A stretch of 31,872 bases of DNA from a virus (lineage: Duplodnaviria; Heunggongvirae; Uroviricota; Caudoviricetes). Position 1 is the stretch's first letter. Every line of letters starts with the position of its first letter. The notes beneath the pieces are model-generated. The model saw nothing but the letters and a program-made list of their open reading frames with translations, did not search any database and had not been told where the DNA came from. The DNA lies in IMG/VR virus record IMGVR_UViG_3300045988_180666, one strand, 5' to 3'. Of this stretch, positions 8,919 to 31,188 are shown piece after piece. The translations under genes and the position numbers were made by a program.

Positions 8919-9762
8919 AAGCTATATTGTGGCTAGCCTTGTAGGCGGTGGAATCTCTATATTTGGCGAAGTCATCGATGTTATCGTCTATGAGGGAGAG
9001 TAGGCTGAAGAAGAGTTTGTCTCTCGCCCTGAGGTCGATGGAATCGCCGTTTTTTGTGATATGGCACCCGATGAAATCGTAGATGCGCATGATGGCGACC
9101 CGATGGGAGGTGGTCGGGAACTGAGCCTTGCGCTCCTCTTCGAGCAACTGGTCTATCTGTGCATCGGAGAGCTCTCGGCGCAGGAAGGTCTCGGCTTGGT
9201 CTATCTCGCCCTTGTGCGCCACGAGGTCATCGAAGGTAAGCTTGCCGGGGATGCCGCAGAACTTGTTGAGGATGTATGGCGACCAAATGAAGGAGCGGAT
9301 GGTGTTGAAGGCTTGCAAGCTGTCAGCCCAGCCCTCGACCTGTCGCAATCGGTTGATGACGTTGTGCTGGGCGTAGTCTCGCCTGTAGGCAAGCTCGTGC
9401 TCCATGGCATCGACACGAGCCTGTGAGGCTGGGGCGATGTTGTCGTTGGAGACCACCCCGAAGCCGTTGTCGGTCATGATGATGTCGTGGGAGTGGAGAC
9501 TATCGAGGAAGGTGGCCAGTATGACATAGTCTCTGGCGTAGCGCTGCAGGGGCGAGTCTTCGGTCGAGACCGCTTGCTCGGCATCTGCGCCCACGACGGT
9601 GGCGATAAGATCGTCAAAATGGTTCTCGAAGGATGGCTGCATCTTGGTGAAGACATCCTCGGAGGCTGCCGCCACGAATGGCAGCAGCTGCTCGAACTGG
9701 TTTATATCAATCTGTATCATCTTGTTGCTTTGATTTTTGGTTGTTGGAAACTTGCTTGGCAT
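8875..9762 (-). CDS. Hypothetical structural protein. An alternative start (MIQIDINQF at 9720) would reduce the overlap with the upstream gene.
   Basis: 295-aa ORF. Starting at 9762 gives a 56-nt overlap with the upstream gene; the ATG at 9720 gives 14 nt. Confidence 0.4.
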   Translation of the reverse strand: MPSKFPTTKNQSNKMIQIDINQFEQLLPFVAAASEDVFTKMQPSFENHFDDLIATVVGADAEQAVSTEDSPLQRYARDYVILATFLDSLHSHDIIMTDNGFGVVSNDNIAPASQARVDAMEHELAYRRDYAQHNVINRLRQVEGWADSLQAFNTIRSFIWSPYILNKFCGIPGKLTFDDLVAHKGEIDQAETFLRRELSDAQIDQLLEEERKAQFPTTSHRVAIMRIYDFIGCHITKNGDSIDLRARDKLFFSLLSLIDDNIDDFAKYRDSTAYKASHNIAYENNADDTTFFFAG

Positions 9763-11113
9763 CCTTGTTCTCGTCGAGGGTGGTGAGCATGATGAGCGGC
9801 ACGTCTGGATAGACCTTCTGCTCCCAGTGGTTGAAGTAGATGACCACCCAGTGAACGGTCTCCATGAGGTCGTGGAACGCCTTCTCTATCGACTGCTTGA
9901 GGGTGAAGAGCTCTCGCTTGTCTGAGCCAGAGTTGTTGGTTTGGCTCTTGCCCGGTGTGGCGCCCACGAGATTAGGGTGGATGTTGTCGGCATAACACTG
10001 CATGTTGTTGCTCTCGGCGATGTCGTCGCTGTAGTCACCGCCATCCTTTGAGGTGTCGATGCGCGTGATGCGCACCATCTTTACCTCTTTGCCATCAGGT
10101 GTGGTGTAATAGCCCGCTATCCAGAGCTTGCCGCTATTCTCGATGCCTGAGATGAAGGAGCGGATTTTTTCTTTCTCCTTCAGCTTGCGCTCCTTTTGCT
10201 TTGCCTTGTCGGTGATGTGCTCCTCTTGGAAGATGCCACGCCAATAGTCGTTGTGTATCTCTACGAGGTAAGGGATGGCAGCGTGGTTTTTGAGCTTTGC
10301 CATCTTGCCGATGGCGATGAGCCGGGAGATGTCGTACCACTTGTCTCGGAAGATGGCGCTGTAGTAGGGCACGGGGTAGTATTGACTGCCAGGAGTAGGG
10401 AAGCGAGTCACGATGGCGAAGACTCTGTCTTTGCACTTTGCTCCACCCGTCTGTCTGGTCAGGGTCTGTCCGCTTTGACCGTCGAGCCCCATGCGCTGCT
10501 GTAGGTCGCCCAGTGGGTCTAGCTCGTCGAGGAGTGGCAGCACCTCGATGTTGTCGGGTTTGACGGCATTGCGCCAGTTGGTATAGAGCACGTATTCGGA
10601 GCGACCGTTTTTGCTCTGGGTGAACCGACAGTAGCACGCCTCTTTGTGCCGGATGCCCACGATGCGATCGCCCTTTTTGTTGAGGATGATGGCTGAGACA
10701 CAAAAGAAGAAGTACTTCATGTCTGTGATTTGCTCGAGGAAGAAGCGCGAGAGGTTGTTGTGCATCTTGAAGAGGTTGACCTCTTTGTCTTGTGTCGGAA
10801 GCTTTGTCTTGATGTCGTTGTACTGGAAGCCCATGCCGTAGCAGGTGAGCACGTTGAAGAGCTTGTTTTGCGCCATCACGCTGCTCTCGCCGATGTTTTT
10901 GATGAGCTGGTAGGGCAGCTTGTTGTCTGCCCCGAAGGGGATGTAGGTGTATCTTTGCTTGTCCACCTCTACGGAGACGGTGGGTGTGGTACCATCATCA
11001 TCGAAGATGGATGAGGACTCGACGAAGCCGCTGGTGGGCGACGAGGTCTGGTAATCGAGCACCTCGCCCATGGTGGCGTATGTGATGTCTATGTTATTGC
11101 TTTTGTCTGCCAT
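9707..11113 (-). CDS. Large virion protein (468 aa from ATG at 11113). Possibly the portal, but not established.
   Basis: The track ORF 9707..11284 begins at a non-ATG codon. The internal ATG at 11113 (MADKSNNIDITYATMG) sits 5 nt after the stop of the upstream gene at 11119. The size fits a portal, but no diagnostic motif was recognised. Confidence 0.45.
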   Translation of the reverse strand: MADKSNNIDITYATMGEVLDYQTSSPTSGFVESSSIFDDDGTTPTVSVEVDKQRYTYIPFGADNKLPYQLIKNIGESSVMAQNKLFNVLTCYGMGFQYNDIKTKLPTQDKEVNLFKMHNNLSRFFLEQITDMKYFFFCVSAIILNKKGDRIVGIRHKEACYCRFTQSKNGRSEYVLYTNWRNAVKPDNIEVLPLLDELDPLGDLQQRMGLDGQSGQTLTRQTGGAKCKDRVFAIVTRFPTPGSQYYPVPYYSAIFRDKWYDISRLIAIGKMAKLKNHAAIPYLVEIHNDYWRGIFQEEHITDKAKQKERKLKEKEKIRSFISGIENSGKLWIAGYYTTPDGKEVKMVRITRIDTSKDGGDYSDDIAESNNMQCYADNIHPNLVGATPGKSQTNNSGSDKRELFTLKQSIEKAFHDLMETVHWVVIYFNHWEQKVYPDVPLIMLTTLDENKDAKQVSNNQKSKQQDDTD

Positions 11114-11118
11114 AATCT

Positions 11119-11379
11119 TTATAAGTATATTGAATGGTCGTTGTATCTGAAGATGAAAATGTCTCTCACCTTGCGTATCTGGTGGTTGACTGGGTTGTAG
11201 AGGGTGTGGGTGCCGTTTTGCCAGGATGAGGACTTGACGAGCCATCCCCTGTACTGGATGATGGAACCATCGCCGCCCTTCCAACAGTCGATGTCAACGG
11301 GCGAGCGGTCGATGCGCGAGATGTCGAGGGCACGGCGCAGCTCGTTGATGTGTATTGCCTTGGGTGTCTTGTCTGCCAT
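11119..11379 (-). CDS. Hypothetical small protein
   Basis: 86-aa ORF between the 353-aa and 468-aa genes. Confidence 0.4.
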   Translation of the reverse strand: MADKTPKAIHINELRRALDISRIDRSPVDIDCWKGGDGSIIQYRGWLVKSSSWQNGTHTLYNPVNHQIRKVRDIFIFRYNDHSIYL

Positions 11380-11396
11380 ATATCTGAAGATGTTTT

Positions 11397-12458
11397 TTAG
11401 TTGAACGTATCGTCGAAGGAGTCGTCGAAGATGCGACCGCCCGTATTGTCGATGTTTTTGAACACGACATTCTGGACTCGCTGGGCATATTGGTAGCTGA
11501 AGGTGAACTCAGCCATGTCATCCAGCTCGTTGGTGCGCTCGCTCTTGGAGTCGGTGAAGGTAATCTCTTTGTCCTGTGTGTAGTCACGGAACAGATAGAT
11601 CTCATCGGAGCGCAGCAGGTCTTCGGCGAAGTGTGCCATGGACGGAGGAATAACACCTGTGTCGCCCTCGAAGGTGCGGGTCTCTTTGACGGAGTAGTTG
11701 ATCTTTTTGCCGCTGATGACGGCGCTCTTGCGCTCGAAGGTAGGTGCAATCTTCTTTTTGCCTAGGCAATAGAAGATCTCTTGGCACCCGAAGGAGTTGG
11801 TGAAGAGGAGCACCGGGTCGGCGACCGCCTCGGTATGGTCTATCTGGAAGTCTTGCACTCGCTTGCCCACGGTGACGGTGTAGGCGAAGAGGTCGCCACG
11901 GTCGGCATCGTAGTAACGGTCGGGCGAGACATCGAAGGTGGTGATGTTATTCACCGTATGGGTAGGGGTGGCATCGGCGGCGATATTGCCCTCCACGACC
12001 TTGCCGTCTTTGTAATATCGGGCTGTGACGGCGGCAGTGGTTCTGTCGGCACCTGCGGCATGGAGATATTCACGGTGTCCGAGCTGTGTGAGCTTGGCAC
12101 CATCGAGGAGGGTGAGGAAGTATTGGTCGAGGAACGACTGGCACGACATGTTGATGTCAACGGTGGCGTAGTAGGCGGTGAACTCGCACGACCAGTTGGC
12201 GACATCGCTCTCGCCATTGTGCTCGACAATCTTGATGGCGCACTTGGCGACCACGGTCGTGCGCACGGCATCGGAGATGAGCGTGCCGAGGTCGTAGATG
12301 GTGATGGTGCCAGCCACTGGGTAGTAAGTCTCGCTGAGCAGCTCTTCGCCCTCGCAGGTGATGGTAACGGTAGCGCGCTCGCCACCTATCTTGAAGGAGA
12401 AGGAGTCGAGCGCACTGGTGAACAATGGCGAAGATGGTTGGTTGGTAACTGTAATCAT
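11397..12458 (-). CDS. Hypothetical virion protein (353 aa)
   Basis: First gene after the terminator+promoter at 12484-12532. It has beta-rich composition. Confidence 0.45.
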   Translation of the reverse strand: MITVTNQPSSPLFTSALDSFSFKIGGERATVTITCEGEELLSETYYPVAGTITIYDLGTLISDAVRTTVVAKCAIKIVEHNGESDVANWSCEFTAYYATVDINMSCQSFLDQYFLTLLDGAKLTQLGHREYLHAAGADRTTAAVTARYYKDGKVVEGNIAADATPTHTVNNITTFDVSPDRYYDADRGDLFAYTVTVGKRVQDFQIDHTEAVADPVLLFTNSFGCQEIFYCLGKKKIAPTFERKSAVISGKKINYSVKETRTFEGDTGVIPPSMAHFAEDLLRSDEIYLFRDYTQDKEITFTDSKSERTNELDDMAEFTFSYQYAQRVQNVVFKNIDNTGGRIFDDSFDDTFN

Positions 12459-12483
12459 ATCAATGTCTCATTAAAACGATGCA

Positions 12484-12493
12484 AAGATAGGAA
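12484..12493 (-). promoter_or_regulatory. Bacteroides-type -7 box TATCTTTG(CA) for the 11397..12458 operon
   Basis: The plus strand reads tgcaaagata; the minus strand reads TATCTTTGCA about 22 nt upstream of the ATG at 12458. The same 10-mer occurs upstream of four other operons. Confidence 0.45.
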
Positions 12494-12532
12494 GGAAGGG
12501 GAGAAAATAAAAATACCTGATTGTCATCACGA
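12490..12532 (-). terminator. Rho-independent terminator (minus strand)
   Basis: Arms 12504-12515 and 12521-12532 form a 12-bp stem (UACCUGGUUGUC / GACAAUCAGGUA, one G-U) with a 5-nt loop. On the minus strand it is followed by UUUUUAUUUUCUCC. It lies about 100 nt after the stop of 12636..12947. Confidence 0.6.
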
Positions 12533-12635
12533 CAACCAGGTATCGACTCATGGAGCGGACCACGCCTTGTTAAGCCTAAGGCTCCATTCCGAGACTGTTT
12601 TATGTTGTAAATGAAAAAAAATGTGCTTGTCTTGC

Positions 12636-12947
12636 TTACTCTTCGGGCTGTGCGCAGTTGATTATCCAGACGAGTCTGCCACCCTCGACAGACTTCATCT
12701 TGAAGCCGTGCTCGACCATGTACTCGGTGATGACGGGGATGGGAGCGACGACCATGCCGCTGATGGCCTCTTGTATATCTTTGGAGGATAGGAAGTCAAC
12801 GCATTGGCTGTATGGGTCATCGCCCGGTGTGTCGCCCTCGAAGTAAGCGTCGAGCGCCATGCGCACATAGTCGATCTTGCTCTCTTGCTCTGACTGTTGC
12901 TGCTCGTCGCTGTTAGCACTGAAGCCCATCACACGCATACGTTTCAT
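12636..12947 (-). CDS. Hypothetical acidic small protein
   Basis: 103-aa ORF overlapping the upstream gene by 4 nt. Confidence 0.4.
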   Translation of the reverse strand: MKRMRVMGFSANSDEQQQSEQESKIDYVRMALDAYFEGDTPGDDPYSQCVDFLSSKDIQEAISGMVVAPIPVITEYMVEHGFKMKSVEGGRLVWIINCAQPEE

Positions 12948-13213
12948 GCCTCACCTCCTTTCGTCTCCAGTGCTATGTTGATGGTCTTGAAGAGCTTGCT
13001 CATGTGGTCGAAGTTGTTGAGCATGAGTAGCACTTTGTCGGCACCGCCGAGGTCTTCGACACAGTTGGTCACCACCTCGTCTGAGATAAGCACCTTTTTG
13101 ACTTGCTCTAGGTACTCGATGAAGTAGCTGAGCTGGTTGACATCCATCATTTCTACGAGCGCATTCCAGACCTCTGCTGTCATGTGCATATTTGTTGCGT
13201 TGTTTGTGTTCAT
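12944..13213 (-). CDS. Hypothetical small protein
   Basis: 89-aa ORF in an ATGA-coupled chain. Confidence 0.4.
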   Translation of the reverse strand: MNTNNATNMHMTAEVWNALVEMMDVNQLSYFIEYLEQVKKVLISDEVVTNCVEDLGGADKVLLMLNNFDHMSKLFKTINIALETKGGEA

Positions 13214-13575
13214 GCTACGACTCCTCCCATCAGATAACCACCAAAGAAAACCACTGCCATGAAGGCTGCGAAGCCTAGTGTGGCCTTGACCACCTCGCCG
13301 TAGGTCACGCTCTCGTCGCAGAGTGCGGTGAAGGTCTCGCTCTCGGTCTTGGCGAGCTTCTTGATTTCACACTTGAGGGTATTGATACCCTCCTCTACGC
13401 TGATGCCTGCAGGTCTCACCTGCGCATCACTAATTAAAATTGAATTCTGCATAATTGCCATCTTATAACCATTATAGACCGACCTTGATGTATAAATACA
13501 ATGGTGGCGGTCACATTCACCGTTGGTTATAAGATGGTAGCTTTCCCAGCGAAGGGCAAGTATCTTACGGATCAT
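13210..13575 (-). CDS. Small membrane protein (C-terminal transmembrane helix); holin-like candidate. The start may be the internal ATG near 13461.
   Basis: The C-terminus LGFAAFMAVVFFGGYLMGGVVA is a clear hydrophobic helix. No adjacent lysin was recognised, so the holin call is weak. Confidence 0.35.
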   Translation of the reverse strand: MIRKILALRWESYHLITNGECDRHHCIYTSRSVYNGYKMAIMQNSILISDAQVRPAGISVEEGINTLKCEIKKLAKTESETFTALCDESVTYGEVVKATLGFAAFMAVVFFGGYLMGGVVA

Positions 13576-13598
13576 GCAACCGCCATATTGAAAAGACC

Positions 13599-13619
13599 TT
13601 TTTCCCGCTGCCGGGAAAA
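13599..13619. terminator. Hairpin TTTTCCCG-CTGC-CGGGAAAA between the AT-rich block and the downstream gene
   Basis: 8-bp perfect stem with T/A runs built into the arms. The orientation is ambiguous. It is plausibly a weak terminator for the 13855-15112 operon. Confidence 0.3.
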
Positions 13620-13854
13620 TGATACTTTATAGGCATAAAAAAAGCCCACGGCGTGAAGCCTAGGCGAAACAGTCGCCATCGCTGAGTAGATTACTACTAT
13701 CTTATAACCGATGGCAAAAGTACGAAGAATAATTGGAACCGCCAAAAAAAAAGCGAGAAATTTTGAAATAAATGACTTTTTTATGTTTTAGAGCATAAAA
13801 CAAGGGGGTGAGGAACGAAAAAGCCCCGGATGCTCACGCACCCGAGGCTGACAG

Positions 13855-14247
13855 TTATTTTTGGAAATAAACTTTTAAAGGGATTGAATTCTCCACATTG
13901 CCAATTTTGAAAGAGAACTGATAGTTGCCCTCTGCAGGGAACTGGAGGTCGGAGAACTCAAAGATGAAGTTGCTGAAGAGAAACTCATCTGAAGGGTGTG
14001 GCTCAATCTTGGAATTGATGGGCTGGCCAAGAATCATCTTGCCAGTGCTCATCTCTGTAACCTCTGCCGAGAACTCTTGCTGAAGTTTGCTTTCCTCGCT
14101 GTTCATCTTAACTCTCGCTACCATGAAGAGGTTGCTCTTAGGCAGCGGTGCTTTTCTTACCACATAGTGGTCAAAAGTGCCCACGATGGTAAGTTTGCCG
14201 TCATTATCTTGTGCAAAGTCACACAATGCAAGAATATCTATGTTCAT
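13855..14247 (-). CDS. Hypothetical protein (130 aa), cargo block gene 3
   Basis: Lower GC than the phage core. ATGA-overlapped with gene 2. No recognisable domain. Confidence 0.5.
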   Translation of the reverse strand: MNIDILALCDFAQDNDGKLTIVGTFDHYVVRKAPLPKSNLFMVARVKMNSEESKLQQEFSAEVTEMSTGKMILGQPINSKIEPHPSDEFLFSNFIFEFSDLQFPAEGNYQFSFKIGNVENSIPLKVYFQK

Positions 14248-14684
14248 TTTATATGTCCTTTAATGTTAGACTCGATAGCCGAGTGTTTGAAAAGTTTTTT
14301 ATAATTGTCGAATGAATATTTGAGTTTGCTCACCGTGCGCTTGTTTGTGCTCACTAGGTTGGCTCCATGTCTGCCAGAGATGCCTTCCTTGGTATTGAAC
14401 TTCAGAGAATTTCTTTTGGAGTCAACCCAAAGCCTGATGGCATCGCCTTGTATCTTGTCACCCACATTGCCATGGACGTTGAGATCTTCTCGTATTTTCT
14501 TGTCCTCTTCGTTGAGCTCAAGAGCTTCGGTGATTTCTACGGAACTATTTCGGTCTAGTTCGTATAATGTCATCTTTTTGCCCGTGATAGGTTCCTCTTT
14601 GAGTCCCTTCCACTCAGCCCTTCTGGCAATGACATCAGCTTTTTTGCCCTCTATGATTTCACCTTCTTTGATATATATAGCCAT
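14244..14684 (-). CDS. Hypothetical basic protein (146 aa), cargo block gene 2
   Basis: Lys-rich. 1-nt overlap with gene 1. Confidence 0.5.
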   Translation of the reverse strand: MAIYIKEGEIIEGKKADVIARRAEWKGLKEEPITGKKMTLYELDRNSSVEITEALELNEEDKKIREDLNVHGNVGDKIQGDAIRLWVDSKRNSLKFNTKEGISGRHGANLVSTNKRTVSKLKYSFDNYKKLFKHSAIESNIKGHIK

Positions 14685-15112
14685 TATTGGATACTTTTTT
14701 GCATTGATTTTTCACTGAAAGAGAATACCTCAGCCATATCATCAGGCGAGGTGATGCTCATGAGCGATGGGCTGACCTCAAGAGCCACCTCAATGTCTTC
14801 AATGGAAGCATCTTTATCTTGTTTGATGATGTACTTATCCTCATGCTCTTCAATCTCTTTATCAAACTCTTCTTCGGTAATATTGCCGTCAAGCATTTCG
14901 CAATATAGTTTGAAGTAGTTGCGCTCACGTGTGCGGTTGTTAACGGCACGAGTCATCAACTCCTTGAGTCTGTCGGCAGTACTGATGTTGAAAAAGTTAG
15001 CCTTATTGGTAACACCAGCGAATGCAACCTTGCCAGTACCTTTGTCTTGTATAGCCACAACAGGGCTGCCATCAGTTTGGTATGTTGTATATATAGTCGT
15101 TGTATTGCTCAT
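14684..15112 (-). CDS. Hypothetical protein with a strongly acidic C-terminal half (142 aa), cargo block gene 1
   Basis: The C-terminus EEEFDKEIEEHEDKYIIKQDKDASIEDIEVALEVSPSLMSITSPDDMAEVFSF is very acidic. Its own TATCTTTG promoter lies about 30 nt upstream. Confidence 0.5.
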   Translation of the reverse strand: MSNTTTIYTTYQTDGSPVVAIQDKGTGKVAFAGVTNKANFFNISTADRLKELMTRAVNNRTRERNYFKLYCEMLDGNITEEEFDKEIEEHEDKYIIKQDKDASIEDIEVALEVSPSLMSITSPDDMAEVFSFSEKSMQKSIQ

Positions 15113-15139
15113 AATTCACATCCTGTTTATATTAACACG

Positions 15140-15149
15140 GTGCAAAGAT
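15140..15149 (-). promoter_or_regulatory. -7 box TATCTTTGCA for the three-gene cargo operon
   Basis: Plus strand tgcaaagata at 15140-15149; minus strand TATCTTTG. Same extended motif as the other phage promoters. Confidence 0.4.
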
Positions 15150-15265
15150 ACGGATATTTTTTGTAAATCGCAAATTTAATGATAAATTTAACAACAAAAA
15201 TTGCAATAAAGATTGGAAAATGGTATATAAAAAATGCTCGACCGCTTTTTGGCTCTTGCCAGACG

Positions 15266-15321
15266 CTTTCGCCGCAGGCGAAAATTTTTGGAAAATGAGG
15301 GGGAAGGTTTTAGCCTTCCCC
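15266..15321. terminator. Pair of adjacent hairpins downstream of radC: TTTCGCC-GCA-GGCGAAA+TTTTT (plus sense) and GGGGAAGG-TTTTAG-CCTTCCCC
   Basis: A 7-bp stem followed by ATTTTT on the plus strand, then an 8-bp GC-rich stem 20 nt beyond the RadC stop. Together they look like a bidirectional terminator module. Confidence 0.4.
15277..15297 (+). repeat. Direct repeat copy 1 (GGCGAAAATTTTTGGAAAATG). Copy 2 is at 16777-16797, with a degenerate third copy at 16734-16754.
   Basis: 19/21 identity between 15277-15297 and 16777-16797. The two copies bracket the radC/PRTase cassette. Confidence 0.6.
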
Positions 15322-15340
15322 TTACCTTATTATATATATA

Positions 15341-16024
15341 TTATAGCTTTCCTTTGTCGTGGTAGCTGTAGAAGCCATCCTCAGCCAAGATGATATGGTC
15401 CATCAAGAAAAGTCTCATCACCTCGCACGCCTTGGCTATCTTCTGCGTGAGCATATCGTCCGCCTTGCTCGGCTGCGTGCTGTTCGATGGGTGGTTGTGT
15501 GCCACGGCGATGATGGTTGCATTGTTGAGCACGGCTTCTTTCATTATCAGTCGAACGTCCACCGCTGTCTCGGTGATGCCTCCCTCGCTGAGCTTGGTGC
15601 ACTTTATCAGCCTAAAGTTTTGGTTCATCAGCACTACCCAAAAGCCCTCTGTCTCATTGCAGCCTATCATTGGGCGAAGATAGTTGTAGAGTGCCAGGCT
15701 GCTGCCTAGGTCGGTGTTTCTCGCTACCTTTTCCATTTGGTAGCGTCTGCCTAGCTCGATGGCTGCCTGTAGGGCTATCGCCTTGCAGTCTCCAATTCCT
15801 GGTACCACTTCCAGGTCTTCTATTCTCGCCTTGCCGATGTTGCGAAGCGAGTTGCCCATGATGTTATAAATCTGTCGTGCCTGCTCTTGGCTGTCCTTGG
15901 TACCTGCCCCTCTGTTGATTACCAAAGAAATCAAGTCAACGTTGGTAAGGGTGTCGAAACCTTGGTTATAGGCTCTGTACTGCGGTCTCTCCTCCATACA
16001 AAGATTGTTATAATTTTGTCTCAT
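15341..16024 (-). CDS. radC: RadC-like JAB/MPN-domain protein (UPF0758 family)
   Basis: N-terminal helix-hairpin-helix (LEVVPGIGDCKAIALQAAIELG). C-terminal JAB motif VAHNHPSNSTQPSKADDMLTQKI (HNHPSG..PS..D signature). Confidence 0.7.
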   Translation of the reverse strand: MRQNYNNLCMEERPQYRAYNQGFDTLTNVDLISLVINRGAGTKDSQEQARQIYNIMGNSLRNIGKARIEDLEVVPGIGDCKAIALQAAIELGRRYQMEKVARNTDLGSSLALYNYLRPMIGCNETEGFWVVLMNQNFRLIKCTKLSEGGITETAVDVRLIMKEAVLNNATIIAVAHNHPSNSTQPSKADDMLTQKIAKACEVMRLFLMDHIILAEDGFYSYHDKGKL

Positions 16025-16039
16025 ATCTTTTGTTATTTG

Positions 16040-16564
16040 TTAGTTATACATTCTCTTTGTTCTCGCTAGGAACATCGCTCCCATCACTTGTGCGCCACAT
16101 TCGGCTAGCTCGTTGGCGAACTCTCGGGCGGTCGCTCCGCTCGTCACCACGTCGTCGAAGATGATGACTTTCTTTCCGCTGAAGTACTCTCTATCGAGTG
16201 CCACTCTGTAGTCGAAGCTCTCACACACTCTGTCTGTGCTGAAGTGCTTGGCTGTGCGCTCTCCATAGATGGAAATGTGCTCGTTTCCGTTCTGTACCTT
16301 TGCGCCTTGGCTCACCTTTTGGGCGAAGCGAGAAAAGCGCTTGGTGTACTTCTTTGAGTTGGCTGCTGGAGCGCAAACCATCACGAAGTCGCTGGCTTTG
16401 TCGCCATAGGTGTTGACGAAAGAGCTGACCACCATATCGGCAGCTGCGTCTGTCGCCCACTGCTTTCCATCCTTGAAGGCAAAGATGAAGTTTCTCACTT
16501 GCTCTGCTTGTGCTGAGCGGTCGAAACGCTTGGAGCTGTACTCGTAATAATTGAAAGTTTTCAT
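16040..16564 (-). CDS. ComF/GntX-like type I phosphoribosyltransferase-domain protein (174 aa, no zinc finger)
   Basis: PRPP-binding motif VIIFDDVVTSGATA near the C-terminus. The FVMVCAPAANSKK...RFSRFAQ arrangement resembles the ComFC core. There is a 15-nt gap to radC. Confidence 0.6.
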   Translation of the reverse strand: MKTFNYYEYSSKRFDRSAQAEQVRNFIFAFKDGKQWATDAAADMVVSSFVNTYGDKASDFVMVCAPAANSKKYTKRFSRFAQKVSQGAKVQNGNEHISIYGERTAKHFSTDRVCESFDYRVALDREYFSGKKVIIFDDVVTSGATAREFANELAECGAQVMGAMFLARTKRMYN

Positions 16565-17359
16565 ACGCTTAAAATTTTTATTCTAGCCAGAGGGAGGAAG
16601 GAGCTTTTTTATTTGAACTCGTCTTTGCCTGCCCGTCTGAGAGTTTTTTTTATTCTGTCCGTCGGTCGTTTTTGTCGCTTTTTACGGTGCGATGCAGACG
16701 AGCGGAGAAGAGGTATGAAAGCCAAGGAATTTTGCAAAAAGTTTATGGAAAACCGTCATCTCTGATTGCGGAAGGCTGCCGAAAAGTTTTTGGAAAATAG
16801 ATTTATCGGTACTTGGTGCATGCCGTCCGCCGTACCTTTGCACCCGAAAAAGAGATAATGACCGATGGATAACCGATAAAGGGAAAAGCTCTCGGACAGG
16901 AAAAGCGGGCAAAGAAAAGGCTCTGCCTTACCTTGGTGGTTAAGCCTTAGCGACGTTTGAGCGCCATCACGGTCACCACCGCTTGAAAATTCGCAAATTT
17001 TAACCCTAGCGTATGAAATGAAAGATGGAAAATTTGCGTCATCAAAAACACCATGTTTTTCAGACTTCAGGAGGAAAAACATACCTTGGAGCGATGAAAT
17101 CGCAGCATTTGGCATGCTTCGACCCCGAGGTTGAAGATGCCGAATGTGTCGTTTTGCGACAGGTTTTCCACACCCACGGATTGGAAAACCCCGATTTTAT
17201 CGTGGTTTTAGGGATTCAAAGGGAAAATAATTCCCCTTTGTCGGCGATAGCACCCCCCACCGCCCTACGCCCGAGCGCGCCTTCCGCCCCCTTGGAAAAG
17301 ACGGAATATGTAAAAGACCGTTAACGTTTTTGTAGGAATGTAAAAAGCCAAAAGGCACG
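16565..17359. other. Non-coding region, purine-rich on the plus strand, with multiple inverted repeats. It contains no plausible ORF.
   Basis: Only short, low-complexity ORFs occur on either strand. It contains a 10-bp IR CGCAAATTTT/AAAATTTGCG (16997-17039) and a 9-bp IR GGTTTTCCA/TGGAAAACC (17165-17193). It also carries repeat copies 2 and 3 and recurring GGAAAA(C/T) motifs. Confidence 0.4.
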
Positions 17360-17392
17360 AAAAAAGGGAACACGCTTCGCAGCGCACTCCCC
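17360..17392 (-). terminator. Rho-independent terminator downstream of terL
   Basis: Minus-strand RNA GGGAGUGCGC-UGCGAA-GCGUGUUCCC gives a 10-bp stem including 3 G-U pairs, followed by UUUUUU. It lies about 70 nt after the terL stop. Confidence 0.55.
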
Positions 17393-17462
17393 TTATCGGC
17401 GGTCAAGCAAGAATGCCAGCCACCTAACTTATATAAGAATCGTACTATCTAAAGAAATCAAA

Positions 17463-19064
17463 CTATAGCATGGAACCCGTGGCGATGTAGCCATCAGCCT
17501 GAGGGTATTTCTCCATGCCAATCATGAGCGTGTCGTAGGCATCGGAGCCATCGGTGCGAGCCTCCAACTTATCCTCCTCGGTCTCAGCCAGCTTCTCGCC
17601 TCGCTTATCCTTCTTGCCGTTGTAGACCCCGGCCAGGCGGATGGAGATGAGCAGGTCTTCGTTGTTCTCGCTGTTGATCATCGAGCGATGCTCAGCCTTG
17701 CCGAGGAACATGCGGTTGAGCAGAAGCATCTTTTCGAGATGTCCCATCGGGTTGCCCAGATAGACCTCGTTGACATACCAGCCATGGTCGGTGAGGTAGT
17801 CGGTGATGAAGGTATGGAAGTCATCGTTCATCAGGGCGTAGTTGTTGCCCACGAAGGTGGAGTCGTAGTAGAAGTTGACCTCTTTGCACCGATGGTACTC
17901 ATAGTACTGCATGAACTTGTCGAGCAGGGCTGGCAGCTTCTCCTCATACTTCACGAAGATGCTCTTGAGGCAGCGTGCCTCGCCCCGCAGGTTGTCTTGT
18001 CCGACGGCTATCCAGTTGATGAGGGCGTTGGCATCGAAGGCGATGCAGAGCGGACGGTCGGGGTCAACGTCGGCATCCATTCTGGAATCTACATGCTTGA
18101 GCTTGTCGATGTCGTAGCCCAAGCCATCGAGGTAGGCGAGGTTGGGCGCCGTGTATAGGTTGGCATCCCTGAGGTTGGAGTAGAAGCCATCGAGCGAGAT
18201 GGAAGGTCGCTTGCACATGATGGAGGTCTGGAAGGTGAGGGCAGGGAGGTCTCGCTTCATCTGCTTGATGAACTCCATGCCGAGCACCTCGATGTTATAG
18301 ACCGATGAGTACTCTTTATAGAAGAGTGCCTTGGAGCGCAGTTGCGCCAGGAGCTGACCAATCTCTCGGAGTCGGCGCTGGGCATAGCCTGAGACATGGC
18401 CCGAGGTCTTGATGCGGTTGCGTATGTCATACTCCTCTACCACGAGCGAGGCGATGGCGTCGATGAGCAGCTGGTCGCAGTCTTTCTTGTAGTTGAGGAA
18501 CCAGGAGCCCTTCTTGGTCACGGGCATATCAGAGGTGATGAGCATGCCATGGTGGTAGTAGTGCTGGCCGAAGAGGTTGACGTTGCCTCGATTGGCAGGG
18601 AAGGTCTCGTCTTTGAGCTGTTCGAAGTTGATGAACTTCGCCTCGTCGATGTCGAGGTAGTCGAGCGAGAGGGAGTTGGAGGTACCCTTGCGGTCTTGCG
18701 AGATGATGGTACCGATGGAGCCGTTATAGAAAGAGATGGTGTTCTCCCAGTTGCTGGGCGGTATGACCGGGTCGGGCCATCCCAGTTTTTTGGGAGGCTT
18801 GACCCCGATGAGATAATGCTTGCCCCGGTGGAAGCCCCATCGCTCCCAGTGCTGAAGCATCGACGGTATGGTGTTGGTGAGGCATCGCTTGGTGTTGGCG
18901 GATACGAAGCCGCCGTTGCTGCCAGGCATGCGCTGCATGTTGCGCAGGTTGAAGGTGGCGTGGAGAATGCTCTTGCCGATGCCTCGACCGCCCACGACCA
19001 CGTTGTCGCGGGCGGAGATGAGGTTGACCTCCATCTGGGCTGGGTTGAGATATTGATCTATCAT
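17463..19064 (-). CDS. terL: Terminase large subunit
   Basis: Walker A GGRGIGKS near the N-terminus and Walker B LDYLDIDEAKF. Size is 533 aa. The start overlaps the upstream gene by 4 nt. Confidence 0.8.
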   Translation of the reverse strand: MIDQYLNPAQMEVNLISARDNVVVGGRGIGKSILHATFNLRNMQRMPGSNGGFVSANTKRCLTNTIPSMLQHWERWGFHRGKHYLIGVKPPKKLGWPDPVIPPSNWENTISFYNGSIGTIISQDRKGTSNSLSLDYLDIDEAKFINFEQLKDETFPANRGNVNLFGQHYYHHGMLITSDMPVTKKGSWFLNYKKDCDQLLIDAIASLVVEEYDIRNRIKTSGHVSGYAQRRLREIGQLLAQLRSKALFYKEYSSVYNIEVLGMEFIKQMKRDLPALTFQTSIMCKRPSISLDGFYSNLRDANLYTAPNLAYLDGLGYDIDKLKHVDSRMDADVDPDRPLCIAFDANALINWIAVGQDNLRGEARCLKSIFVKYEEKLPALLDKFMQYYEYHRCKEVNFYYDSTFVGNNYALMNDDFHTFITDYLTDHGWYVNEVYLGNPMGHLEKMLLLNRMFLGKAEHRSMINSENNEDLLISIRLAGVYNGKKDKRGEKLAETEEDKLEARTDGSDAYDTLMIGMEKYPQADGYIATGSML

Positions 19065-19690
19065 AGTGCTTTGTCCTCCTTGACTTCTTCTGTAGGTGTA
19101 TATTCCAAGAGCTGTTCGTCGTAGTCCTCGGCCTCGATCTTGACGAGATCCATGGAGTTGTCGGTGTATTTCTTGACGAGCTTCTTGATGGTCTGCATCA
19201 CGTTAGGGATGCGCTTGAGACCCAAGTGTCGTGGGTCGGTGGTAGGGATGAAGACCTGAGGCTGAATCTGGTCGTAGCCGTTGTCGGTAGGATCCTCTTT
19301 GTCGAGCAGGTGATATTTGCCGTATGCAGCTGCGGCGGCAGCCATGGCTCGGGCATCGCCCATGGAGTCGGCCTTGTCGTAGGTGCGCTGTATCATCTGG
19401 TCGAAGCGATAGCGGGCGAAGTCTTTTGACACTTTTTGCAGGTTGCCCAATATGAGCTTGATGAGGTGCAGGTCGTTGTAAGCCATCATGCGCTGCACCT
19501 TGTAGTCGTGCATATCTTTATAGACCAGCTCTTGGTCGCTCTTGCGAGGGTTGATGAGCCACCAGGCATAGAGGGCACGGATGCGCAAAATGCGGTCGCG
19601 CACTGGGGCGGGCACATTTTGCGCATCCATCTCTTCGGGTGTGCGGTCCATCAGTTCGATGATGGCATCGATGTTGGCGGGTTCTCTCAT
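19061..19690 (-). CDS. Putative terminase small subunit / packaging-associated protein
   Basis: 209 aa. Translationally coupled to terL and lies immediately upstream of it. No diagnostic motif was found, so the call rests on position only. Confidence 0.35.
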   Translation of the reverse strand: MREPANIDAIIELMDRTPEEMDAQNVPAPVRDRILRIRALYAWWLINPRKSDQELVYKDMHDYKVQRMMAYNDLHLIKLILGNLQKVSKDFARYRFDQMIQRTYDKADSMGDARAMAAAAAAYGKYHLLDKEDPTDNGYDQIQPQVFIPTTDPRHLGLKRIPNVMQTIKKLVKKYTDNSMDLVKIEAEDYDEQLLEYTPTEEVKEDKAL

Positions 19691-21916: not shown

Positions 21917-23026
21917 TTACTCCTTGCCCTCAGCTCCGGTATCGTCTGCAGAAGAATTCTTCTGCTCTGCATCGCTAGCTGTGTTGCTGCTTGCAGGATC
22001 AGCACCTGAACCCTTTGTGATGAGCGATGTGGTACCATCGTTTGTGATGAACAGGGCTCGTTCTTTATTGATGCTCTCGTACTGGCAACCTAAGAACTTG
22101 GTGGCGATGAAGTCGAGCTTCCAAGGGTGGTACTTTTCTACGCTGATCTTCTCCTCGTCGCTGTTGTTTGCCTCGTTGACACCCACGAGCATATTGTTGC
22201 GAGTGGTGAGCTGGAAGAACGGAGCGTTCTTCTTGTTGATGAGTGGTACCATCTCAACGTTGTCGAAACCCTCGACGGTGTTGTGGTTGTAACCGGTATT
22301 GTATGGCACATTGCCAAACTTATTGAGGTAGTTGCGGTTGTAGAGATTGATGAACGCCTGTGGAACGTAGAGATAAAGCTTCTCTTCGCCAATCAGTTCT
22401 TCGTCAGCCTCCTCGCAAATGGCCTGTGCGAAGTCAACGGCGTTATCGCTGCTGATATTCTTACCACTGCCCAAAATATCTGAAACTTTGATGAGGTTGC
22501 CGAGGTCTCGAGACAGCTTGCCATTAGTCAACTCAGTCTTGGCGATGGTATCGAAACCATTGAAGAGGTCTTTTGAGCCTTTGCCCTCGTCGTTGCGCAC
22601 GGCATCGAAGAGGTGGAGGTTGAGGTTCTTGCCCAGCTTGAGCGCCAAGAGCTGCAGCACCTGAAGGGTGATTGGCACGTTCTTAAGCGCTTCGCCATTC
22701 ATGGCGTTGGCCCCCCAAATGGTGGAATAAACTGAGTTCGGGGAGAACTTGATGTCAACGTTGCCGAGGAACACCTGCAAAGTGCGAGGTGTAATCTTTA
22801 CGCCACCATCGCCCACGCGGTTCTCGTCGTATGGACCAAACTCTGCGTTGCCGAGCAACTCGCCCACGGTCTCTGAAACTCTGATGCCCGGGCGCAGGGT
22901 CATGTACTTGAGTGACTGAGCCAAGCCTTTGGTAGGCATCGTAATCAACTTCGAACGGTAAGTTTTCGCAGTGTTCTGCAGCTGTACATCGACATCTACA
23001 GGCACAATGAATTTATTATCTGCCAT
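21917..23026 (-). CDS. Major capsid protein (ATG at 23026, MADNKF...)
   Basis: 369-aa protein directly after the prohead protease/scaffold gene, in HK97-like order. The ATG is 2 nt after the protease stop. Confidence 0.55.
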   Translation of the reverse strand: MADNKFIVPVDVDVQLQNTAKTYRSKLITMPTKGLAQSLKYMTLRPGIRVSETVGELLGNAEFGPYDENRVGDGGVKITPRTLQVFLGNVDIKFSPNSVYSTIWGANAMNGEALKNVPITLQVLQLLALKLGKNLNLHLFDAVRNDEGKGSKDLFNGFDTIAKTELTNGKLSRDLGNLIKVSDILGSGKNISSDNAVDFAQAICEEADEELIGEEKLYLYVPQAFINLYNRNYLNKFGNVPYNTGYNHNTVEGFDNVEMVPLINKKNAPFFQLTTRNNMLVGVNEANNSDEEKISVEKYHPWKLDFIATKFLGCQYESINKERALFITNDGTTSLITKGSGADPASSNTASDAEQKNSSADDTGAEGKE

Positions 23027-23027
23027 A

Positions 23028-24053
23028 TTATGCAAACTGATTTAAAACATCCAACACTTGATCTGAGCAGAAATCCTCGACCTTGGTGTCATCGACAGCA
23101 GTGTGCGTGTCGCCACCAGGCTCTCCCTCCAGATCCTTCACTTTATCCTTCAGGTCATCTCTCTCCTTTTCGAGATTCTTGACCTTAGTCTCTAACTCCT
23201 TCTTCTCGTCCTTGACCTTCTGAAGCTCTGTGTCTTTGTCGGTCACGGCCTTGGAGTCGGCAGCGATCTTATCCTCCAGTTTCTGCATCTGCTCCTGTGA
23301 GATTGTGCAGTTCTTTGCGGAATCTTCTGCCTCAATGCCCTCGATATTGAGGACATTGTTGATGTGAGTCCATTTTTTGATCATATTAATAATTTTATTT
23401 TGTGATTTATCTTTGCCGAATAATCGGTCGATGATGCTTGGCTTTTTATCATACCAGGAGTTAACAACCTCTGGGAGAACAGGAAGGTTGTTGTACTTGA
23501 TGAAGTCTTGCGTCTGCTCGGTGATGTCGGCAGGCTTGCCATCCATGGCTTCATCGACGAGACCCAGTTCGATGCACTCATCGACGGTGTGCCACATCGC
23601 TTCGGACATCACCTTGACGATGTCCTCGTGCTTCTTGCCCGAGCGATCGCAGTAAACGTTGGCGATGATGTTGTCGATTTTCTGCTGGTTCTCTTGCTGT
23701 TTTTGAAGTTGCTCGATGAGCGAGCCTATCTGCTCCTCGTTGAGCGCAGACCACACAAACTGCTCGGTAGAGCACTTGTGTACCAGGAGCAAGCTATATT
23801 TGCTCATGCGAATCTTGCTGGCACCCATCGCACAGATGGTGGCAGCAGAGGCAGAGAAGCCCGCCTGGAAGTCAACGGTCACGTCGCCATGGGACTTGAA
23901 CATCTGACAGATGGCGAGACCTGCGGAGACCTCGCCACCCAAGGAGTCGATGGCAACATCGACGTGCTTATCTTTGTTGGCCTTAAGAACATCGCGAACC
24001 ATGAGCTTGGTCCACGAGCCAATATATCCTGTGATAGAAATTTGGTACTTCAT
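23028..24053 (-). CDS. ClpP-like (S14) prohead protease fused to a C-terminal coiled-coil scaffold domain
   Basis: The N-terminal half has ClpP-like segments (DSLGGEVSAGLAICQ, FSASAATICAMGASK). The C-terminal roughly 100 aa is a K/E-rich coiled coil (KDTELQKVKDEKKELETKVKNLEKERDDLKDKVKDLE). Confidence 0.65.
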   Translation of the reverse strand: MKYQISITGYIGSWTKLMVRDVLKANKDKHVDVAIDSLGGEVSAGLAICQMFKSHGDVTVDFQAGFSASAATICAMGASKIRMSKYSLLLVHKCSTEQFVWSALNEEQIGSLIEQLQKQQENQQKIDNIIANVYCDRSGKKHEDIVKVMSEAMWHTVDECIELGLVDEAMDGKPADITEQTQDFIKYNNLPVLPEVVNSWYDKKPSIIDRLFGKDKSQNKIINMIKKWTHINNVLNIEGIEAEDSAKNCTISQEQMQKLEDKIAADSKAVTDKDTELQKVKDEKKELETKVKNLEKERDDLKDKVKDLEGEPGGDTHTAVDDTKVEDFCSDQVLDVLNQFA

Positions 24054-29902: not shown

Positions 29903-30280
29903 ATGTTTAATGGTCAGATAATCAGAAAGTTAATGTCGGATGCTGGCTTAACTAAAAAAGAGTTTGAAAGACGTATGTTCGGTAGTAAATCGACCGACCT
30001 CAACCATTTGGAAAAAGCGAAGAATCTTCGCAGTGACACTCTCGAACGTCTGCGTGATGTGTTGAAGTGCTCTATGGATGACTTCTTTACAGCACCCTCA
30101 TGGGCTGAGAACGGAAAGGGGACAGTCGTAGGCTCTAACAATGTGCTGTCAACAGTAGCCATCGGCAACGAAGTGATGGAAGCCCAATATCTCAAGGAGT
30201 TGCTCTTGGAGAAGGACAAACGCATCAGCACTTTGGAAAATTATATCAAGCTTCTGGAGACTAACTTAAATAAGGACTAA
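29903..30280 (+). CDS. XRE-family HTH transcriptional repressor (CI-like)
   Basis: The N-terminus LTKKEFERRMFGSKSTDLNHLEKAKNLRSDTLERLRDVL is HTH_XRE-like. The C-terminus has a coiled coil. It is divergent from the cro-like gene. Confidence 0.6.
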   Translation: MFNGQIIRKLMSDAGLTKKEFERRMFGSKSTDLNHLEKAKNLRSDTLERLRDVLKCSMDDFFTAPSWAENGKGTVVGSNNVLSTVAIGNEVMEAQYLKELLLEKDKRISTLENYIKLLETNLNKD

Positions 30281-30510: not shown

Positions 30511-30566
30511 TTTGCGTATATTGAATAAAAGTGCTACTTTTGCACATTGATAATTTATTGTGCAAC
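30511..30566 (+). promoter_or_regulatory. TetR gene promoter and operator: -33 TTTG, -7 TACTTTTG, 26-bp palindrome
   Basis: -33 TTTG at 30511-30514, a 20-nt spacer, then -7 TACTTTTG at 30535-30542. The palindrome TTGCACA-N12-TGTGCAA (30540-30565) overlaps the predicted transcription start. Confidence 0.55.
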
Positions 30567-30591
30567 CAAATCTCGATGGAGGTACTTCGTT

Positions 30592-31188
30592 ATGTCAATA
30601 TCAAAAACTAGACAGAAATTAGTGGATGTCGCTCGACAACTCTTTGCAAAGAACGGAATCGCCAATACAACGATGAATGACATCGCTGTGGCTTCTGGTA
30701 AGGGACGTCGCACGCTTTATACCTATTTTAGTCGTAAGGAGGACGTCTATTACGCAGTGATAGAGTCGGAATTGGAGCGCCTTTCTGACAAACTTGACGA
30801 AGTGGCCGCCAGTAAGATTCGACCTCAAGACAAAATCATCGAATTGATTTATACCCACTTGAGCATGATCAAGGAGACTGTTGTCAGAAATGGAAATCTG
30901 AGAGCTGAGTTCTTCCGCAATATTTGGATGGTGGAAAAGGCTCGCAAGAATTTCGATGAAGACGAGATAGAACTTCTCAGGAAGGTTTATTCCGAGGGCA
31001 AGGCGGACGGCGAGTTTGACATCGATAATGTAGATTTGGTGGCTGACATCACACACTATTGCATCAAAGGTCTCGAAGTTCCGTTTATCTATGGGCGATT
31101 GGGACATGGCTTGAACGTGGAGTCGAGCAAACCGCTGGTTGCCAAGGTTGTCTATGGTGCTTTAGGAAAGTCGGGAATGAAGTTGTAA
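30592..31188 (+). CDS. TetR/AcrR-family transcriptional regulator
   Basis: The N-terminus RQKLVDVARQLFAKNGIANTTMNDIAVASGKGRRTLYTYF is a classic TetR HTH. ATG at 30592. Confidence 0.75.
   Translation: MSISKTRQKLVDVARQLFAKNGIANTTMNDIAVASGKGRRTLYTYFSRKEDVYYAVIESELERLSDKLDEVAASKIRPQDKIIELIYTHLSMIKETVVRNGNLRAEFFRNIWMVEKARKNFDEDEIELLRKVYSEGKADGEFDIDNVDLVADITHYCIKGLEVPFIYGRLGHGLNVESSKPLVAKVVYGALGKSGMKL

Follow-up and report, generated by a model that had tools for sequence, protein, structure and literature searches.

Phage morons are reportedly known from HK97, HK022 and lambda through Juhala et al. in 2000 (Hendrix and colleagues), with lambda bor and lom and HK97 gp15 as examples, and the P2/P4 hot spots are defence hot spots in prophages and satellites. 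Here, we analyzed a stretch of 31,872 nucleotides from a virus of the Caudoviricetes (IMG/VR record IMGVR_UViG_3300045988_180666), called the window in what follows, and focused on three small genes, A, B and C, that lie with their own promoter on its minus strand between positions 13855 and 15215. In architecture, this A-B-C cassette is a classic moron inserted in a variable slot of a prophage, which is an already-known kind of element; its content is uncharacterized and consists of two undescribed protein families (A and B) and a protein of the Pfam family DUF6941 (C). We consider it highly probable that A-B-C is an autonomous, mobile, dispensable and selected accessory cassette. As to its function, the explanation that we favor, with a probability of roughly 0.4, is that this mobile cassette encodes a conflict module with a toxin-antitoxin-like logic.

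The locus had been singled out by a first-pass annotation made from the sequence and its open reading frames, which described three tightly coupled small genes of 130, 146 and 142 amino acids (aa) with overlaps of 4 and 1 nt. We found these open reading frames exactly as described on the minus strand. The stop codon of A and the ATG of B overlap by 1 nt, while B and C overlap by 4 nt (ATGA), which implies that the translation of A, B and C is coupled. The features that delimit the cassette are as follows (pI, isoelectric point).

15300..15321, minus strand: terminator-like hairpin closing the upstream RadC/phosphoribosyltransferase (PRTase) unit, with an 8-bp G+C-rich stem and a T-rich tail, at the upstream edge of the intergenic region.
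13855..15215, minus strand: mosaic block, the exchangeable cassette including its promoter region, delimited by homology breakpoints in relatives.
15143..15174, minus strand: predicted Bacteroidota-type promoter, with -33 TTTG (15174-15171), a 20-nt spacer and -7 TATCTTTG (15150-15143).
15131..15146, minus strand: TTTGCACCGTGTTAAT, left arm of a palindrome that overlaps the -7 box and may be an operator or a 5' untranslated region (5'-UTR) element; the right arm is decayed in the window.
14684..15112, minus strand: gene A, 142 aa, pI 4.6, predicted to start with a variable beta unit of three strands, followed by a long helix and by an acidic C-terminal domain made of helices.
14244..14684, minus strand: gene B, 146 aa, pI 9.4, predicted mostly beta, always between A and C.
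13855..14247, minus strand: gene C, 130 aa, pI 5.0, belonging to Pfam DUF6941 over its full length.
13822..13849, minus strand: intrinsic-terminator-like hairpin and T-run ending the cassette transcript, with a 12-bp stem (8 G-C pairs) followed by TTTTTCGTT.
13715..13746, minus strand: next bipartite promoter, TTTG-N20-TACTTTTG, starting the following unit; downstream boundary of the cassette, inside a block (13764-13210) that is conserved with the downstream genes.

Since the hairpin at 15321-15300, the terminator at 13849-13822 and the promoter at 13746-13715 flank it, the cassette is bracketed in the order terminator, promoter-A-B-C-terminator, promoter, and forms one predicted transcription unit. 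The spacing between the -33 and -7 elements of Bacteroidota promoters reportedly follows a 19-21 nt rule, attributed to Bayley et al. 2000. In the 31.9-kb window, the full TTTG-N19-21-TAnnTTTG pattern occurs 6 times versus 0.23 expected from shuffles, and TAnnTTTG alone occurs 37 times versus 12 expected. The TATCTTTGCA motif that the first-pass annotation had taken for a private promoter is the -7 element of the Bacteroidota consensus TAnnTTTG (PMC4747536), and it proved to be the 3' half of the full bipartite pattern at 15174-15143. This promoter is located 31 nt upstream of the ATG of A, and seven other contexts have an equivalent -7 box, 32-61 nt ahead of A. The cassette terminator begins five bases past the stop codon of C, and a comparable hairpin with a T-run follows C in six other loci (L005, L183, L187, L192, L196 and L198). 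In several phage backbones, the cassette comes with its own TAnnTTTG box, and in several with a hairpin terminator, both not always in the same backbone. The hairpin near 13599 that had been proposed as the end of the block (13619-13600) lies in the leader of the following operon, because it is downstream of the promoter at 13746-13715, so that this part of the annotation had to be corrected.

A, B and C are real genes under strong purifying selection: the ratio of non-synonymous to synonymous substitution rates (dN/dS), calculated against homologues with 77-87% protein identity and only where dS was unsaturated, was 0.05-0.07 for the three genes and 0.07 for C, and the 90%-identity clusters holding them contain 119-207 member sequences each. 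We compared the window with 60 IMG/VR contigs gathered through a conserved 353-aa flanking gene, 40 of which span both flanking markers. The first-pass annotation had proposed looking at the presence or absence of the block among relatives, and A-B-C was indeed present in 24 of these 40 contigs and absent from the other 16. The neighboring PRTase-RadC pair varied independently of it, with both blocks in 20 contigs, A-B-C only in 4, PRTase-RadC only in 4 and neither in 12, meaning that all four combinations were seen. In addition, phages with no more than 75-79% identity in the 353-aa gene share A, B and C at 95-100% identity (99-100% in most cases), which indicates recent exchange. Pairwise DNA alignments located the edges of the exchanged block: in relatives lacking PRTase-RadC, homology breaks at 16984 and resumes at 15215, while in relatives with extra cargo after C, it stops at 13855 and resumes at 13764. 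PRTase-RadC is a separate exchangeable block, at about 15216-16983.

The A-B-C order is kept even when A is only 33-47% identical, and we found the cassette in at least six backbones including that of the window. In the window backbone, it comes after a 533-aa gene. In a second backbone, it comes after early genes and faces the convergent gene of a polyvalent protein of about 5,300 aa; at loci L001-L004 (about 9390-16429, minus strand), this giant protein that the cassette abuts carries MuF_C, ART-PolyVal, ddrB-ParB, PBECR and LPD domains. In other backbones, the cassette sits within a structural module, upstream of the tape-measure gene, at a junction of early and late genes that precedes a ClpP-like protease, or, at the end of an integrated prophage (L250-L252), between holin-amidase lysis genes and the integrase. 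In these last three loci, an RVT_1 reverse transcriptase gene, possibly part of a diversity-generating retroelement, is found about 3 kb upstream of the cassette; no gene was called at the expected position of C in L251, where C may be disrupted.

The presence of the cassette, or of A alone, just up- or downstream of the tape-measure gene in several backbones is what one would expect if the three genes encoded accessory virion or assembly proteins, for example of a tail-assembly-chaperone-like type, and tail assembly chaperones are small acidic proteins. We nevertheless regard this explanation as very improbable, because the cassette is dispensable (absent from 16 of the 40 close relatives), changes its position between backbones, including a prophage end next to an integrase, and has its own promoter and terminator. 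Moreover, A, B and C had no match in the structural categories of PHROG and no homology to virion proteins was found. Such homology and presence in all relatives were the two outcomes that the first-pass annotation had named as speaking against its proposal, and neither was seen. Foldseek searches with B against BFVD gave template modeling (TM) scores below 0.25, thus no structural neighbor, and the window phage has its own small overlapping gene pair upstream of a 1159-aa gene, from which the cassette lies about 6.7 kb away.

The annotation had also described the block as compositionally foreign, with a lower G+C content (GC) than its flanks. The GC of the cassette genes is 0.42-0.43, and 0.46-0.55 at third codon positions (GC3), versus 0.50-0.60 (GC3 0.65-0.81) for most long neighboring genes; the cassette as a whole is at 0.424 versus 0.508 in the rest of the window, and the GC of the entire window is 0.505. 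The deviant composition and the self-contained three-gene moron were thus borne out, but not a simple signature of import: the cassette GC is 5-16 points (mean 9) below that of the carrier in 13 of the 13 other phage contexts measured and it tracks the carrier GC, which indicates that low GC belongs to the cassette itself and does not record a single recent import.

The cassette is extremely common in human gut metagenomes. Window proteins were matched exactly in Segatella copri genome assemblies and in metagenome-assembled genomes labeled 'Caudoviricetes sp.'; A, B and C each have exact copies on at least 1000 contigs, and exact B is indexed in 6,548 blocks of a public assembly collection. 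None of the three proteins was found in 50,697 GenBank phage records, a nucleotide search with 11000-19100 gave no match among GenBank phages, and B was not found in PLSDB plasmids. The window also contains a Cro/C1-type helix-turn-helix (HTH) gene (29903-30280, plus strand), divergent from the long operon of the minus strand and a likely lysogeny switch, which fits with a temperate phage; it is followed by a gene for a TetR-family regulator (30547-31188, plus strand) with its own bipartite promoter at 30511-30542.

The linkage of B to A is obligate, and that to C nearly so. When viral sequences were scanned with B as the seed, A-B-C was found in 38 of 38 complete loci and B was never seen without A, which also held for two distant cases (L253 and L254). 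A distant A protein (P0350) is followed by clear B and C proteins. After a very distant one (P0453), whose contig is only 1.6 kb long, there is a distant B, and no C is visible. A was found alone in L197 and in L202-L206. L202 and L207 have a common backbone, with 96.8% identity as far as the end of A, and from its stop codon on, B-C is present in L207 and absent from L202. In both loci, A is directly upstream of a tape-measure gene, and from our own reading of the sequence, the A reading frame of L207 appears interrupted near a poly-A run. The stand-alone A of L197 comes after the tape-measure gene and has its own -7 box and terminator.

B is the most conserved of the three proteins between backbones (52-59% identity, versus 42-46% for A and 25-28% for C). 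Many of its polar residues are invariant, in motifs such as EGxK, YELDRN, HGxVGD...GDAI and KEGxSGRHGA, and, judging from its sequence, it belongs to an undescribed family. Sequence and profile searches of B against PDB sequences gave nothing significant, the best matches being solute-binding proteins (E 0.004). We also considered that B and C may be a duplicated gene, but a profile-profile comparison showed no relation between them.

The first-pass annotation had recognized no domain in the three products and had proposed remote homology and fold searches. This description was accurate for A and B, which matched no family and whose models have no significant neighbor, but not for C, which matches DUF6941 (PF22091) with an E of 6.3e-21 and 75.5 bits versus a cut-off of 27, over model positions 2-124 of 125. 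The fold of C is probably a beta sandwich; in sequence and profile searches against PDB, nothing was significant (best matches with pilins or Ig-V domains, E 0.09-2), and Pfam gave no match of C to the SecB chaperone. In the literature that was searched, nothing was found on DUF6941 or PF22091. Members of this family are encoded in 280 species genomes, mainly from Chitinophagaceae and Ferruginibacter, Treponema and other spirochaetes, plus one Pirellulales genome. The 79 chromosomal loci are monocistronic with no A or B nearby, which rules out that DUF6941 is always linked to A and B, and their neighbors vary among housekeeping genes such as those for DnaK, TonB-like/GldM, Orn/Arg decarboxylase, FtsH and Pmp3 proteins. 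The family is widespread and single-copy in Chitinophagaceae/Ferruginibacter and in termite-gut Treponema, often beside genes for DnaK, a TonB_C/GldM-domain protein or an Orn/Arg decarboxylase. From these contexts, the ancestral DUF6941 family may have served in housekeeping or in stress.

A is the protein that had attracted attention, since its Glu/Asp-rich tail had been compared with DNA-mimic anti-restriction proteins of the Ocr/ArdA type. The tail itself was confirmed: residues 73-142 contain 20 Asp or Glu versus 6 Lys or Arg residues (29% Asp/Glu, net charge -14). The whole protein contains 18% Asp/Glu, with a net charge of -10 and a pI of 4.6, and its N-terminal half has a pI of 9.5; A is thus only moderately acidic overall, and the neighboring genes at 12636-13213 encode similarly acidic proteins (pI 4.4-4.5). 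An exhaustive profile search gathered 391 representative clusters, most of 130-190 aa, in which the N-terminus varies and a stretch of about 100 residues toward the C-terminus is conserved, so that A, which had no match in Pfam, PHROG, NCBIfam or PADLOC, is assigned from its sequence to a sizeable undescribed family. Among 112 diverse members, the median net charge is -12 (also -12 for the tail), the pI is 4.1-5.2, and Pfam scans gave only scattered weak matches, such as SHOCT in 4 of them. A 367-aa protein (P0368) that seemed to be a fusion with an A domain was discarded as a clue to domain architecture, since its N-terminal part looked like a fragment of a glycerate kinase and it is probably a chimera from assembly or gene calling.

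The conserved acidity of the A family would be consistent with an anti-defence cassette that is expressed early and inhibits host immunity, with the acidic domain of A acting as a nucleic-acid mimic or decoy and with B and C hitting other targets. Small soluble proteins with folds lacking any known match, the private promoter, the hypervariable N-terminus of A, as expected in an arms race, and the stand-alone copies of A in other phages also fit with this explanation. Still, we consider it unlikely. A showed no likeness in sequence or structure to Ocr, ArdA or any solved protein: there was no such Pfam match at E<=0.1 for A itself or at E<=0.01 for the 112 family members, no PDB sequence match, no PHROG match, and no match of the A model to the Ocr or ArdA folds. 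The invariant core of A is basic (the Arg-rich NNRTRERNYF, on a long helix), and the protein as a whole has only the moderate acidity given above. In the AlphaFold model of A, which has a predicted local distance difference test (pLDDT) score of 84.8, three beta strands (residues 5-33) are followed by a helix (residues 42-74) and by four short helices, so that the acidic part is predicted to be a compact helical domain with an HTH-like end rather than an elongated array of charges. Since the acidic charge is carried by a compact domain that folds next to a basic helix, the DNA-mimic interpretation of A is not supported, although the acidic domain may have a decoy role. Furthermore, the co-residents of the slot are of defence or toxin-antitoxin type and not known anti-defence genes, and one backbone has the cassette beside the integrase at a prophage end, a location that is typical for genes expressed in lysogens.

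The last two helices of A carry DDMAEVFSFSEKSMQKSI, where other members of the family show ...EIFGIS..., and the sequence pattern and predicted helices suggest that the C-terminus of A may form an HTH-like motif. The cassette promoter of three relatives has a palindrome across its -7 box, whose 16-nt arms (TTTGCACCGTGTTAAT / ATTAACACGGTGCAAA) are 100% complementary in L191 (1658-1690), 94% in L192 (5944-5976) and 81% in L183 (5951-5983); this palindrome may serve as an operator or form a hairpin in the 5'-UTR. Together with the invariant Arg-rich helix, a weak PHROG match of A to a 'transcriptional regulator' family (E 0.024) and the fact that DUF6941 relatives are ordinary chromosomal genes beside DnaK, FtsH or Pmp3 in some genomes, these observations would fit with a regulatory or lysogenic-conversion module that is no defence system at all: A would be a small DNA- or RNA-binding regulator, with B and C as cofactors tuning the expression or physiology of the host or phage. 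We find this explanation quite unlikely.

In the window's phage lineage, the slot that holds the cassette is a hypervariable island of 3-7 kb with small low-GC genes, between the 533-aa gene and the 89/103/353-aa genes. Its cargo was read in related loci (L022-L081), over the interval homologous to about 13200-17460 of the window. It includes a SocA/Panacea antitoxin-domain protein (E 7e-18) adjoining a 123-aa protein with a hydrophobic and probably membrane-spanning C-terminal half, DUF2335 and DUF5053 proteins, a lipoprotein-like 132-aa protein, and a 338-aa protein matching the PADLOC candidate defence family PDC-S02 (E 2e-14). In the window, the slot also holds a ComF/ShosT-like PRTase (16040-16564, minus strand; PADLOC ShosT 1.6e-9 and PsyrT 9e-9), which adjoins a RadC-JAB protein (15341-16024, minus strand; Pfam 1e-35). 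ShosT is described as a characterized PRTase toxin (PMC11961720). PRTase-RadC is a candidate pair of the toxin-antitoxin or defence type, in which the partner of the PRTase is unusual, RadC being in place of the DprA-like ShosA. Considering this alternative cargo (Panacea, PDC-S02 and the ShosT-like PRTase), the slot collects toxin-antitoxin and defence-type genes. The proposal of the first-pass annotation that the block has a defence or anti-defence function is plausible, with the slot favoring defence or toxin-antitoxin functions, and its interpretation as a whole is partly supported.

The mechanism that we favor would then be as follows. The promoter-A-B-C-terminator unit is passed on through recombination between temperate phages that infect Segatella/Prevotella and related Bacteroidota. 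Its three products, predicted to be cytoplasmic, would be expressed from the prophage, interact and act together as a conflict module with a toxin-antitoxin-like logic: B, which is basic, highly conserved and predicted to be mostly beta, would be the effector; A, which is acidic, would neutralize and/or regulate B through its Arg-rich helix and its HTH-like C-terminal motif; and C would have an accessory part, for example as an adaptor or stabilizer. The outcome could be that competing phages are excluded or that the prophage is stabilized. This conflict-module explanation draws on the coupled pair of an acidic and then a basic protein, on B never being found without A while A also exists by itself, on the promoter palindrome in relatives and on the defence and toxin-antitoxin content of the slot. 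With such circumstantial support, a conflict or defence-type function of the cassette comes close to even odds while staying below them, and the specific assignment of toxin, antitoxin and accessory roles to B, A and C, respectively, is a tentative one that we rather doubt. It is also imaginable, if somewhat unlikely, that A-B-C is an undescribed three-component anti-phage or addiction system of prophages, built from two families without detectable fold relatives and a recruited DUF6941 protein, that recombination has spread it over many temperate phages of Segatella/Prevotella in the human gut, and that stand-alone A proteins are orphan 'antitoxins' used for counter-defence.

Several results weigh against this conflict-module explanation. 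No toxin, antitoxin or defence model was matched by A, B or C in Pfam, PHROGs, NCBIfam or PADLOC 2.0 (no match in PADLOC-DB 2.0 at E<=0.1 and nothing significant in NCBIfam). The models of A and B, which are confident ones, have no significant structural neighbor and so point to no catalytic or DNA-binding activity, and among the 112 members of the A family, only one had a weak HTH match (RecQ-1-like_HTH, E 0.001) and none matched the common HTH families. No inverted repeat was detected at the cassette promoter in the window, where a single arm is left, and several other lineages of the cassette lack the palindrome. On chromosomes, DUF6941 genes are surrounded by housekeeping genes and are not in defence islands. 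Association with a variable slot is also weak evidence for function, because anti-defence genes and other morons gather in such slots too. Finally, the cassette is inside late or structural regions in several backbones, which makes late expression during lytic growth possible.

Around the cassette, there is hardly any annotation for the order of late genes in this phage group, and two early labels were abandoned: the 533-aa gene (17463-19064, minus strand) had been called a large terminase subunit (TerL) on a weak PHROG match only (E 1e-4), and the 353-aa gene (11397-12458, minus strand), which matches no family, a major capsid protein (MCP). Both were used only as conserved flanking markers. 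A ClpP-like protease gene (23028-24053, minus strand) followed by a 372-aa gene (21917-23035, minus strand) suggests that a head module lies at 21.9-24 kb. On the other side, between 13855 and 13575 (minus strand), the promoter at 13746-13715 is followed by terminator-like hairpins at about 13662-13637 and 13619-13600 and then by the start of the next gene at 13575; a promoter and leader terminators ahead of a long operon recall the PR'-tR' antitermination layout of lambda. When the leader RNA (13632-13712) was folded in search of a structured small RNA, the z-score was -1.0, which is not significant, and there was no Rfam match; tRNA and Rfam scans of the window found nothing.

Segatella copri is among the most abundant human gut bacteria and few systems of this kind have been tested in Bacteroidota. 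The cassette, which is delimited, mobile, selected and clonable (about 1.4 kb), is a candidate for a new mechanism of phage-phage or phage-host conflict, and A and B may represent new folds.

When compared with known systems, the cassette is closest in architecture to phage morons. Like them, it is an independent promoter-gene(s)-terminator unit between conserved phage genes, has a deviant composition, is present or absent among close relatives, and is also found in late regions and at prophage ends. Unlike them, it has three coupled genes instead of one, belongs to phages of Bacteroidota with a Bacteroidota-type promoter, and has no homology to any characterized moron product. With Ocr (T7 gp0.3) and ArdA, A shares being small, acidic and phage-borne, with an acidic stretch of about 70 aa. 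With type II toxin-antitoxin and toxin-antitoxin-chaperone (TAC) systems, the cassette shares small coupled genes, acidic then basic, of which the basic one is never alone and the acidic one also exists as an orphan, a promoter palindrome in some lineages, and a third small gene as in TAC systems. However, A-B-C has no similarity in sequence or fold to known toxins, antitoxins or SecB-like chaperones, and the third gene is a DUF6941 gene instead of one for a SecB-like chaperone. As in the defence hot spots of prophages and satellites, one variable slot between conserved genes receives mutually replaceable cargo with defence or toxin-antitoxin signatures, and ShosTA, PanA-type and PDC-S02 systems occupy the very slot of the cassette; in contrast to such cargo, A, B and C match no PADLOC 2.0 model and are placed in a defence class by association only. 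Lastly, C is a full-length member of Pfam DUF6941, but whereas the chromosomal members of Chitinophagaceae, Treponema and others are monocistronic and in housekeeping contexts, the family has become in this cassette the obligate third gene of a mobile operon.

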